Shown here piece by piece: positions 32,368-35,334 of a stretch of DNA of 64,000 nucleotides. The DNA comes from Patescibacteria group bacterium (GTDB taxonomy: Bacteria > Patescibacteriota > UBA1384 > XYA2-FULL-43-10 > 1-14-0-10-43-13), in NCBI GenBank assembly GCA_041666325.1, contig JBAYHC010000001.1, forward strand, positions 59,338 through 123,337, in the 5' to 3' direction. Position 1 is the stretch's first letter. Every line of letters begins with the position of its first letter. The notes beneath the pieces are model-generated. The model worked only from the letters and a program-made list of their open reading frames with translations, made no database searches and was not told the DNA's origin. The position numbers and the translations under genes are program-made.

Positions 32368-35334
32368 ATGAATCAACCTATGGAAAAATACAATTTTCAC
32401 GAAATAGAAGTAAAGTGGCAGAAGATTTGGACAGAGAAGGATTACGCGAAGGCCGATGATTTCTCGGACAAGCCCAAACACTACCATTTAGTCGAATTCC
32501 CTTATCCATCAGGGGCAGGGCTTCATGTTGGCCACTGCATGGGTTATGGTGCTTCCGATGCTTATTGTCGCATGAAACGAATGCGCGGATATAACGTTCT
32601 CTATCCCATAGGCTGGGATGCTTTTGGGTTACCAACAGAGAACTATGCTCTGAAAACAGGGGTTCACCCAACAGTCGCTACAGCAGAAAATATTAACACA
32701 TTTAAAAAGCAGATCAAGAGCCTGGGATATTCTTTCGATTGGAACAGAGAGATAAACACTACTGACCCAGCCTACTACAAATGGACGCAGTGGATTTTTT
32801 TGCAGTTCTACAAACATGCTATCATTGATGGCAAACTTATCGAAGTAGCTGACGATGACACTGTGACAGAGCGGTTGGCATACCAAAAGGAGATGCCTAT
32901 CAACTGGTGCCCATCTTGCAAAATCGGTCTCGCTAACGAAGAGGTTATCAGTGGTAAATGTGAACGCTGCAGCACAGAAACCGAGAAAAGATCTCAAAAA
33001 CAATGGATTTTGCGCATCACCGCTTATGCCGACAGGTTGATCAATGATTTGAGCAGCGTAAACTACCTGGATAAAATCAAGACCCAACAGATCAATTGGA
33101 TTGGGCGAAGTACTGGCGCCGAAGTCATGTTCAGCATTAAGAACCACAAAACAGGACTCACCGTCTTTACTACGCGGCCGGATACACTTTTTGGCGCTAC
33201 CTTTATGGTCATCTCTCCCGAGCATCCGCTAATTAAAAACATCGCGAACAGCATCGAGAACAAAGAAGAAATCGATGAGTATATTCGAGAAGCCGCCAAA
33301 AAATCAGACCTTGAACGAACGGAAATGAATAAAGAGAAAACCGGCATTGAAATCAAGGGTATCAAGGCAATTAATCCAGTAAACAACGAGGAAATTCCAA
33401 TCTTTGTTGCCGATTATGTCTTGGCTTCCTATGGAACCGGCGCCATTATGGCTGTCCCGGCCCATGACGATCGTGACTGGGAATTCGCCAATAAATATGA
33501 CATTCCTATGCGCCAAGTCGTGGCCCCAGAGGTAACATACTACAAAACAAAACCTATCGAAGGCAAACCTTGGGTAGATCGCGTTGTCACTGAGTCAATT
33601 ATTCATGACCCGCGCACAAACAAGTATCTGGTTCTGAAGTGGAAGAAGCAACCATGGAACACATTCATTACTGGCGGAATCGAAAAGGATGAAGACATCA
33701 TCGAAGCGGCAAAGAGAGAAATACACGAAGAAACCGGCTACAAAAATGTTAAATTGGTTAAAAATCTTGGCATAACACGTCCAAGCTTTTACGCAGCCCA
33801 CAAAGACGAAAATAGACGAGCGATTTTTCACGGCTTGCTTTTTGAACTTGAGAATGACGAAAGAGATGAGACCGACCAATCAGAAAAAGATATCCACGAC
33901 ATTGTTTGGCTGAATAGAGGGGACCTCACTATTGATAGTATTGTTTGTGCCAGCTTTGATTATTGGATGGAAGCCCTAGATAACAAAGAGGCTGCTTTCT
34001 GTGGCGAGGGTATCGCCATCAACTCTGATTTTCTTGATGGACTATCAACCGACGAAGCAAAGACAAAGATCACAAAATGGTTGGAGCAACATGATCTCGG
34101 CAAAGCCGCTGTTAATTACAAGCTTCGAGACTGGATTTTCTCCCGCCAGCATTATTGGGGTGAGCCAATACCAATCATCCATTGTCAGAAATGTGGCATG
34201 CTACCGCTAGACGAAAAAGATCTTCCTCTTGAATTACCAATGGTTGAACGATACGAGCCGACCGATAACGGGGAATCCCCTCTTGCCAGAATTGATGAAT
34301 GGGTCAACATAACTTGCCCAAAGTGTGGAGGATCAGCAAAACGAGAAACTGACACCATGCCAAACTGGGCAGGGTCTTCGTGGTATTACCTTGCATATGC
34401 TATGCAAGAGCGAAATACGAAATACGAAATACGAAACACGGATCGAGTTCAGCCTGATGAGAATATATTCAAGCAAAAGAAGCACGAATTAGACTATTGG
34501 ATTCCCGTCGATATCTACAACGGCGGTATGGAGCACACAACGTTGCATTTACTTTATTCTCGTTTCTGGCATAAATTCTTATTTGATCTTGGCTTTGTGC
34601 CAACCTCAGAGCCATATGCCAAAAGAATCGCCCACGGCATCATCCTTGGGCCCGATGGTCAAAAGATGAGTAAATCGAGAGGCAATGTTATTAACCCAGA
34701 TGAAATGGTTAAAGAGTACGGTGCTGACACACTCCGGGCTTACGTGATGTTTATCGGTCCATATGACCAGGAATCAGCTTGGAATACAACGGGCATCCAG
34801 GGTGTGCACCGCTTCATGAACAGGGTATGGAATAATCAAAAACTTGTCACAACTCAAAATGACGATAAAGCATTGTTAATCAAGCTCAACCAAACCATCG
34901 TAGGAATTAGCGAAGATCTGGAAAACTTCGGACTAAACACGGTTGTCTCTAAGCTCATGGAATTTAACAATACTCTCGAAAAGGTCGGACACATCAGTAC
35001 TGAATCATACCGGAAATTCCTGCAATTACTCTCCCCTGTTGCACCGCATATAGCTGACGAGATCTGGCAGAAACACGAGTTCACAAGAACAACAGAGGAA
35101 TCATCGTGGCCAGAAGCCGATCCCAACTACCTTGTAGGCGACGAGATTGAGGTCGTAGTCCAGATTGATGGCAAGGTGCGAAATAGGCTAACTGTTTCAT
35201 CAACCATTACCGACGACGAACTGGAGCAGGCAGCTTTGGCATCGGCCAGAACACAAGAATTTATCGGTGGCAAAGAAATAGACAAAATAGTAGTCGTGCC
35301 GAAAAGATTGGTCAGTATCGCCACAAAAGGGTAG
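32368..35334 (+). CDS. leuS: leucine--tRNA ligase with embedded Nudix hydrolase domain
   Basis: 988 aa; HIGH-class motifs ([16 protein letters not shown]), KMSKS (QKMSKSRGN), CP1 editing domain; extra ~155 aa between editing domain and the VNYKLRDW segment containing a perfect Nudix box. Confidence 0.9.
   Translation: [988 protein letters not shown]
33529..34002 (+). other. Nudix hydrolase domain inserted within LeuRS (approx. aa 388-545)
   Basis: Nudix box [23 protein letters not shown] = G-x5-E-x7-REUxEExGU exactly; absent from canonical bacterial LeuRS at this position. Confidence 0.8.
34411..34440 (+). repeat. tandem heptanucleotide repeat (AAATACG x3 + AAACACG) inside leuS coding sequence
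   Basis: cgaaatacgaaatacgaaatacgaaacacg encoding ...[13 protein letters not shown]... within a lineage-specific insertion. Confidence 0.8.

Follow-up and report, generated by a model that had tools for sequence, protein, structure and literature searches.

A predicted Nudix hydrolase cassette nested in the CP1 editing domain of a Patescibacteria leucyl-tRNA synthetase

What is a complete second enzyme doing inside an aminoacyl-tRNA synthetase? The question is raised by the leucyl-tRNA synthetase (LeuRS) gene leuS in a 64,000-nucleotide stretch of contig JBAYHC010000001.1 (positions 59,338 to 123,337, forward strand) from a Patescibacteria group bacterium (assembly GCA_041666325.1). This whole stretch is called the window here, and positions are counted from its first nucleotide. 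Within its CP1 editing domain, the synthetase carries an insert of 150 amino acids (aa) that is predicted to be a complete Nudix pyrophosphohydrolase domain of a distinct subfamily, folding independently of its host. The gene and its insert contain the following features.

32368..35334, plus strand: leucyl-tRNA synthetase gene, a single unbroken frame of 988 aa with a TIGR00396 match, 100% identical to NCBI protein P0010
32524..32535, plus strand: HIGH-type signature HVGH of the class I catalytic core, aa 53-56; G51, H53, G55, and H56 are invariant in 90 relatives
33094..33531, plus strand: N-terminal part of the CP1 editing domain, aa 243-388 (PF13603 positions 2-146)
33532..33981, plus strand: nested Nudix cassette of type A, aa 389-538, predicted as a complete Nudix fold inside a CP1 surface loop
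33673..33741, plus strand: Nudix box of 23 residues, aa 436-458, fitting GX5EX7REUXEEXGU
33787..33816, plus strand: X-loop or specificity region of 10 residues, aa 474-483, lying 16-25 residues past the box, with the signature F[FY]AxHKxxNR
33982..34086, plus strand: C-terminal part of the CP1 editing domain, aa 539-573, completing PF13603 positions ~147-185
34663..34677, plus strand: KMSKS loop, aa 766-770; K766, M767, S768, K769, and S770 are invariant in 90 relatives

The nested domain and its synthetase host

An initial annotation of this DNA described a LeuRS with an inserted canonical Nudix domain. The description is borne out by the TIGR00396 and PF00293 matches, the Nudix box, and the predicted fold, and both the profile search and the structure prediction that it proposed as checks agree with it. 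The Pfam NUDIX model PF00293 (cut-off 21.1 bits) aligns to aa 415-520 of the full protein at 48.2 bits and gives the excised insert a score of 52.4 bits. A confident predicted fold with the alpha/beta/alpha sandwich of the Nudix family covers all 150 residues and is consistent with an independent domain. Base composition over the insert is unremarkable.

The comparison set consisted of the 120 best LeuRS matches, 80 of which have PF00293 at the same site (carriers) and 40 of which do not. Alignment with these 40 insert-less relatives defines the limits of the insert. The spacing from KYDIP to VNYKLRDW is 201 residues in the query and 192-212 in carriers, versus mostly 56 in non-carriers. The annotated limits of 33529..34002 are correct to a few codons relative to the alignment-based 33532..33981, but the annotation had placed the insert beyond the end of CP1, and this part does not hold. 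In the native protein, PF13603 covers only profile positions 2-146 of 185, as befits a LeuRS with an interrupted rather than contiguous CP1. Removing aa 389-538 in silico restores a single match to positions 2-185 of 185 (226 bits). The Nudix domain is therefore nested within CP1, between profile positions ~146 and ~147, and a location after CP1 is ruled out.

The host is otherwise recognizable as a functional-looking LeuRS. Its reading frame scores 961.1 bits with TIGR00396 (cut-off 548.4), in a match that the insert splits in two. The editing-site motifs of CP1 are present as a Thr-rich TTRPDT (aa 268) and AHDDRD (aa 365), and T268, T269, R270, D272, T273, H366, D367, R369, and D370 are invariant across the 90 aligned relatives, carriers and non-carriers alike. 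Judging from these motifs, the insert appears to leave the catalytic and editing machinery intact. The identical NCBI protein (P0010) comes from a 460-kb contig of a Patescibacteria metagenome-assembled genome (MAG) and is labeled only as a 'class I tRNA ligase family protein'. The longest open reading frame begins with MNQPMEKY (32368, 988 aa), whereas NCBI takes the second Met, four codons downstream (32380), for a protein of 984 aa. A frameshift or assembly error that puts the segment in a separate reading frame had been recognized from the start as one outcome that would undo the description of this gene. The continuous frame, the identical NCBI protein, and the existence of ~80 homologous carriers together rule out a frameshift or assembly artefact.

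The residues expected of a working Nudix enzyme are strongly conserved. The perfect 23-residue box noted in the initial annotation is confirmed as canonical, and its key positions are retained in nearly every one of the 80 carriers (G436 in 79, G437 in 78, E442 in 78, R450 in 79, E451 in 80, E454 in 79, E455 in 80, and G457 in 80). A further set of residues specific to the subfamily (R405, W425, W430, K479, R483, L494, and W514) is similarly conserved. The X-loop, the region through which Nudix enzymes meet the variable portion of their substrates (PMC5389931), is aromatic and basic in character, with K479 in all 80 carriers, R483 in 79, F474 in 72, and H478 in 68. This pattern points to strong purifying selection on the putative metal-binding and catalytic Glu and Arg residues and on the specificity loop, and the nested Nudix domain is apparently an active enzyme.

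A variant box class, GG..GQT...AR[AQMT]E..EETGY, lacks both the first Glu and the Arg. It characterizes stand-alone members of the subfamily and second copies in tandem arrays (P0001-P0009, P0130-P0135, P0140, P0141, P0145, and others), a pattern that suggests an active/variant pair. Some Nudix-fold proteins are known to be non-enzymatic (PMC5389931), and together with the variant class this precedent would favor a noncatalytic role as a ligand sensor, protein-interaction surface, or structural element. Such a role is very improbable for the nested domain. The query and 78-80 of the 80 close carriers keep every catalytic residue, and even the variant class still has the three Glu of REUXEE.

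Spread, exchange, and copy number of the cassette

How widespread is this architecture? When one genome per species was scanned, at least 219 loci proved to encode this Nudix subfamily, and the domain lies inside a LeuRS reading frame in 76 of the best 80. The titles of these best 80 loci are Saccharibacteria, Paceibacterota/Parcubacteria, Berkel-, Nomura-, Zambryski-, Taylor-, Vogel-, Falkow-, and Moranii-bacteria, or unclassified 'bacterium', so that the named genomes are nearly all Patescibacteria. Four MAGs among them are labeled Gammaproteobacteria, and mislabeling is suspected. Across 1.84 billion representatives, an exhaustive profile search returned 312 clusters at E <= 1e-10; the best 148 of these comprise 104 that are LeuRS-flanked, 35 that are stand-alone, and 9 others. 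The subfamily seems from these searches to be confined almost wholly to ultra-small symbionts. Searches of viral contigs and viral folds turned up generic Nudix matches but no member of the subfamily, and a phage origin is not supported. At one locus (L035:4807-7916) the N-terminal part of LeuRS with its Nudix domain is in a different frame from the C-terminal part, which could be due to a frameshift or an assembly error or could mark a pseudogene or split gene.

Literature searches found no published description of a LeuRS-Nudix architecture, and a clan-wide review of Nudix enzymes from 2017 does not mention synthetases (PMC5389931). The initial annotation, which knew of no such fusion, was right in that none was found in the literature, but the fusion is not rare and occurs in hundreds of public Patescibacteria sequences. 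The survey of insert and full-length LeuRS that it called for gives the counts above, both among the best LeuRS matches and at the level of species.

Despite this broad distribution, the insert does not follow the descent of its host. A tree built from 804 columns of the LeuRS core interleaves carriers and non-carriers completely. Core identity between a non-carrier and a carrier reaches 92% in P0112 and P0037, which come from the same sample and have the same synteny. In the window, leuS is followed by a conserved block of genes.

35478..37205, plus strand: downstream synteny block with bL32 (35478..35657), NusB (35916..36323), and RNase III (36468..37205)

The order LeuRS-bL32-NusB-RNase III also occurs around P0037, P0112, P0041, and P0072, which include both carriers and non-carriers, and therefore the leuS genes of the two groups are orthologous housekeeping genes.

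The inserts themselves fall into discrete types: type A with 45 members including the query, type B with 17, type C with 11 plus a related pair, and several singletons. Identity between types is only ~25-35%, and core and insert identity are uncorrelated (Spearman 0.0015, 3160 pairs). In the pair P0067/P0036, for example, identity changes sharply at the insert edges: the flanks are 97-100% identical up to ~aa 375, the inserts are 23-43% identical, and identity is regained after ~aa 556. The interleaved tree and the lack of correlation rule out a single ancestral gain followed by vertical descent. A fast-evolving insert is also ruled out, since pairs of the same type are conserved as strongly as the core (core/insert identities of 0.887/0.905, 0.825/0.893, and 0.746/0.879), and 49 pairs with inserts at least 70% identical have cores that are only 57-89% identical. 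When core identity falls below 75%, the chance that two proteins share a type is 0.35-0.43, equal to the random expectation of 0.374. The simplest reading is that old, slowly evolving cassette types have been swapped between LeuRS genes and deleted from them. No LeuRS core column differs significantly after correction between the 80 carriers and the 40 interleaved non-carriers (best p = 5.6e-5, threshold 1e-5), which suggests that the core shows no adaptation to the module.

The subfamily also appears to enter LeuRS at three or more sites and in one to three copies. A BLAST-based map places the sites near core positions ~390 (the dominant one), 230-260, and 500-520, and Pfam mapping of P0159 puts the Nudix domain ahead of an editing domain whose CP1 is uninterrupted. 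Two copies are present in P0135, P0138, and P0147, and three in P0130, P0131, P0183, L018, and L049. The cassette is furthermore found in a synthetase of the other class, P0266, a class II prolyl-tRNA synthetase (ProRS). Five ProRS clusters carry the subfamily with 133-181 bits over the whole subfamily hidden Markov model (HMM).

P0266, P0278-P0281; L096:2906-4837, L097:5593-7524: ProRS carriers of 641-674 aa, with the Nudix domain between the anticodon-binding and C-terminal domains

The Nudix domain of P0266 is 48% identical to one type B LeuRS insert. About 115 of the nearest ProRS relatives lack a Nudix domain; several of these are named Nanoarchaeota or Woesearchaeota, and the hosts of the ProRS carriers may be DPANN archaea. 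One 716-aa ProRS relative (P0365) has a PF03483 (B3/B4 tRNA-binding) domain, a further example of an unusual insertion in a synthetase from these organisms. Taken together, these distributions portray the nested Nudix domain as a plug-in cassette that would have been horizontally exchanged, duplicated, placed at several sites, and lost.

These observations bear on two explanations of why the domain is there. The first, raised in the initial annotation, is an added pre-transfer editing activity in which the Nudix domain hydrolyzes mis-activated aminoacyl-adenylates made by LeuRS. The position within the editing domain and the link to the editing synthetases LeuRS and valyl-tRNA synthetase (ValRS; see below) are what would be expected. 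The module is dispensable, however, in close relatives with identical editing sites, it is exchangeable and multi-copy, it is found at further sites in LeuRS and, in ProRS, far from any editing domain, and the host core shows no co-adaptation. Aminoacyl-adenylates are moreover acyl-phosphate anhydrides and not the pyrophosphate-linked compounds that serve as Nudix substrates. The idea finds no support in these results, and we regard it as the least probable of the explanations discussed here.

The second is a selfish in-frame element, intein-like or other, that propagates through conserved essential genes without benefit to the host. The cassette's patchiness among near-identical orthologues, several sites, tandem copies, exchange across hosts, and conserved essential hosts all resemble such an element. 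Yet the insert has no Hint/intein or homing endonuclease Pfam match and no splicing junction residues, and the whole of it is predicted to fold as a Nudix domain. A comparison of filled and empty sites in P0041/P0072 DNA revealed no terminal repeats or target duplications, but this pair is 10-20% diverged at the nucleotide level, which is too far to inform. The purifying selection on catalytic residues and a whole-domain conservation equal to that of LeuRS argue for a selected enzymatic function, and a purely selfish element is highly unlikely.

Stand-alone members and additional inserts provide further context. A stand-alone Nudix gene of the subfamily lies a few bp upstream of a LeuRS that has its own nested Nudix domain (L033, 809-4494), and another is upstream of ValRS (L057, 5938-8867), where a different Nudix gene overlaps on the opposite strand. 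Other stand-alone copies adjoin a HAD_2 gene (P0001), PurL (L039), and a DHODH-like gene (L022). In 41 long LeuRS-Nudix proteins, every further insert that Pfam recognizes is a hydrolase (Ser_hydrolase in 16, other alpha/beta-hydrolase models in up to 14, HAD in 3, and Ham1 in 1). In these 16 proteins the Ser_hydrolase domain (PF06821) accompanies the Nudix domain and is nested close to where CP1 begins (P0058, P0065, P0068, L021:4270-7974), and this alpha/beta-hydrolase could be an esterase acting on acylated tRNA. Two giant LeuRS frames, L018:3205-8409 (1735 aa) and L049:1137-5753 (1539 aa), have three Nudix domains and a HAD_2 phosphatase, with an alpha/beta-hydrolase as well in L018. L060:1795-5823 (1343 aa) combines a Nudix domain with a full Ham1/ITPase (197 bits) that separates the catalytic core from the anticodon-binding domain. 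In L056:3997-7707 a TatD_DNase occupies the first ~283 residues of the LeuRS frame, perhaps as a true fusion or as an upstream gene read through in frame, and L064:3976-7689, a frame of nearly the same length, may be a similar case.

Elsewhere in the window there is one more Nudix gene.

50327..50785, minus strand: second Nudix open reading frame, 152 aa, PF00293 36.6 bits

The initial annotation had listed a stand-alone divergent Nudix gene at 50327..50737; the gene exists, with the longer extent given here and on the minus strand. It has a degenerate box (RTVQDSCGL in place of REUXEEXGU) and scores 4 bits on the HMM of the LeuRS-insert subfamily, and it is therefore outside the nested-domain subfamily. 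An Rfam scan of the window found two tRNAs only and no leader element upstream of leuS. Just upstream of leuS, at 31101..32132, a 273-aa minus-strand open reading frame with no Pfam match is overlapped by a 313-aa plus-strand frame, and the G+C content of this patch is 0.49-0.51 versus ~0.42-0.46 around it.

Candidate substrates of the nested Nudix domain

If the cassette is an enzyme, what might it hydrolyze? No equivalog model answers directly. The nearest NCBIfam models are those for RppH (NF001936, NF001937, and NF001938), but they reach at most 25-28 bits against cut-offs of 116-139, and this amounts to resemblance only. A sequence search of the PDB gave matches at the level of the Nudix box and no close solved structure. 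In fold comparisons, the nearest characterized neighbors are RppH, the diadenosine polyphosphatase represented by Mycobacterium smegmatis MutT1 and M. tuberculosis Rv2985, the Ap6A hydrolase Ndx1, the Ap4A (diadenosine tetraphosphate) hydrolase of Aquifex, and DDP1; MutT-type and NudI-type enzymes are also found. The Pro that marks ADP-ribose pyrophosphatases ~15-16 residues past the box is missing, since positions +15 to +17 are S/H, F, and F/Y, and the query's P472 at +14 is shared by only 6 of 80 carriers. The SQPWPFPxS motif of NADH diphosphatases is absent from the insert sequence.

We tentatively favor an autonomous, synthetase-tethered hydrolase of dinucleoside polyphosphates (ApnN, including the diadenosine forms ApnA) or nucleoside polyphosphates, to which we assign a probability of roughly 0.4. 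This reading is preferred because the nearest folds are RppH/MutT1/Ndx1-like, because the query has an aromatic residue at +17, and because the subfamily is tied to three different synthetases. Synthetases are the principal producers of ApnN, and the Nudix enzymes known to hydrolyze Ap4A are RppH/NudH and MutT1 (PMC7705103). Of the three functional ideas put forward in the initial annotation, hydrolysis of Ap4A/ApnA fits best and is the best lead. The module would work independently of leucylation and editing. Its substrates would most likely be Ap4A and other ApnN, which every synthetase makes when an aminoacyl-adenylate meets ATP or another nucleotide, and cleavage would yield AMP and ATP. 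The invariant K479 and R483, with the aromatic residues at +16 and +17, would suit a polyphosphate chain. In genomes with little regulation, fusion could ensure constitutive, stoichiometric co-expression with the source enzyme, and the accessory nature of the module might leave lineages free to drop or swap it.

Several observations weigh against ApnN hydrolysis. A Tyr ~17 residues past the Nudix box is a marker of ApnA hydrolases (Dunn et al. 1999, summarised in PMC5389931), and although the query has this residue (Y475), it is only partly kept across the 80 carriers, which have F in 37, Y in 31, and H in 12 at +17 (and F in 72 and Y in 8 at +16). Ap4A is diffusible, so tethering brings no obvious kinetic gain. 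The maintenance of multiple types, the presence of up to three copies per protein, and the frequency of exchange are all left unexplained. Finally, the Ham1/ITPase and HAD co-inserts and the PurL, DHODH-like, and HAD neighbors fit a sanitation of nucleotide pools as well or better.

This last point leads to a possible though less likely alternative, that the cassette performs general nucleotide house-cleaning or salvage in an organism that scavenges nucleotides. It would remove damaged or noncanonical nucleoside triphosphates or other NDP-X compounds, with LeuRS as a tolerant, constitutively expressed carrier. Consistent with this role, the other LeuRS-nested domains (Ham1/ITPase at 197 bits, HAD phosphatases, and alpha/beta-hydrolases) are all hydrolases, stand-alone copies lie by HAD_2, PurL, and DHODH-like genes, MutT-type and NudI-type enzymes are among the fold neighbors, and the module is dispensable in a host that shows no adaptation to it. 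The subfamily is, however, overwhelmingly in or beside synthetases (at three or more LeuRS sites, in ProRS, and near ValRS) and not in other large permissive proteins. A permissive-site model also predicts many unrelated inserted families, but only hydrolases are detected and one subfamily is dominant.

A further alternative is that the cassette might act on the ends of RNA or tRNA. It could remove 5'-triphosphate, Np4A, or NAD caps in the manner of RppH, or nucleotide adducts (pyrophosphate or ADP-ribose) on the tRNA acceptor end; the synthetase would provide tRNA binding, and the diversity of types would reflect conflict with toxins or phages. The best profile matches are to RppH equivalogs and Dcp2, and RppH structures are prominent among the fold matches. 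CP1 is the LeuRS domain that handles the tRNA 3' end, and esterase-type alpha/beta-hydrolases use the same CP1 site. Multiple types, horizontal exchange, and frequent loss also resemble the dynamics of conflict systems. On the other hand, the RppH models fall far under their cut-offs (25-28 bits versus 116), and in ProRS the Nudix domain separates the anticodon-binding domain from the C-terminal one. All types have the same X-loop and active-site residues, so the target does not seem to be diversifying; inserts of the same type evolve as slowly as LeuRS, unlike participants in an arms race; and the subfamily was not found in the viral contigs searched. Overall, we judge this activity improbable.

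Neither ApnN hydrolysis nor house-cleaning, the two leading models, explains the upkeep and exchange of several types. A more speculative proposal, which we also think has a low probability, is that the synthetases of ultra-small symbionts (Patescibacteria and, via ProRS, apparently DPANN) serve as platforms for exchangeable hydrolase cassettes, including the Nudix types, alpha/beta-hydrolases, HAD, and Ham1. The Nudix cassette would then provide tethered protection or repair, for example against adenylate-mimic or nucleotide toxins or blocks at the tRNA acceptor end. Its types might be kept by frequency-dependent selection in conflict with phages, hosts, or competitors.

Relation to known systems

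The asymmetric Nudix hydrolases of nucleoside and dinucleoside polyphosphates (Escherichia coli RppH/NudH, mycobacterial MutT1/Rv2985, Thermus thermophilus Ndx1, and the Aquifex Ap4A hydrolase) are only 16-20% identical to the insert, which is far under every NCBIfam equivalog cut-off. Whereas enzymes of the RppH, MutT1, and Ndx1 type are free-standing, the insert is nested in a synthetase and has a signature of its own (R405, W425, W430, F[FY]AxHKxxNR, and W514). The host resembles canonical bacterial LeuRS (TIGR00396) in its full-length match above cut-off, its HIGH and KMSKS signatures, its Thr-rich and Asp editing motifs, and its housekeeping synteny. It differs in that CP1 is broken by a foreign enzyme of 150 aa, and relatives hold one to three of these together with alpha/beta-hydrolase, HAD, or Ham1 domains.

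Extra catalytic domains within a synthetase polypeptide have precedents in the isoleucyl-tRNA synthetase (IleRS) with an N-acetyltransferase domain (NCBIfam NF040702) and in bacterial ProRS with its INS editing domain. These additions are fixed and lineage-stable, in contrast to a Nudix cassette that is horizontally exchanged, multi-site, multi-copy, often lost, and present in class I and class II enzymes. Inteins are similar in that they insert in frame into conserved essential genes and are patchy among close relatives, but here the insert is a predicted Nudix enzyme, lies in a variable surface loop, and presumably stays in the mature protein. The locus in the window is one example of a widespread system, apparently unpublished, in which synthetases of ultra-small microbes carry exchangeable hydrolase cassettes.

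Annotation is affected, because NCBI downgrades such proteins to 'class I tRNA ligase family protein', and so is phylogenetic work on the Candidate Phyla Radiation that takes LeuRS as a marker. Few known proteins are as conserved as synthetases, and domains added to them are usually stable lineage markers; here an essential enzyme carries a foreign enzyme that behaves like an accessory gene. If the substrate is not ApnN, the link to three synthetases would point to an unrecognized synthetase-linked chemistry. If it is ApnN, this would be the first case in which the producer and the degrader of these alarmone and cap nucleotides are joined in one polypeptide, and it would offer a handle on Ap4A biology in unculturable organisms.

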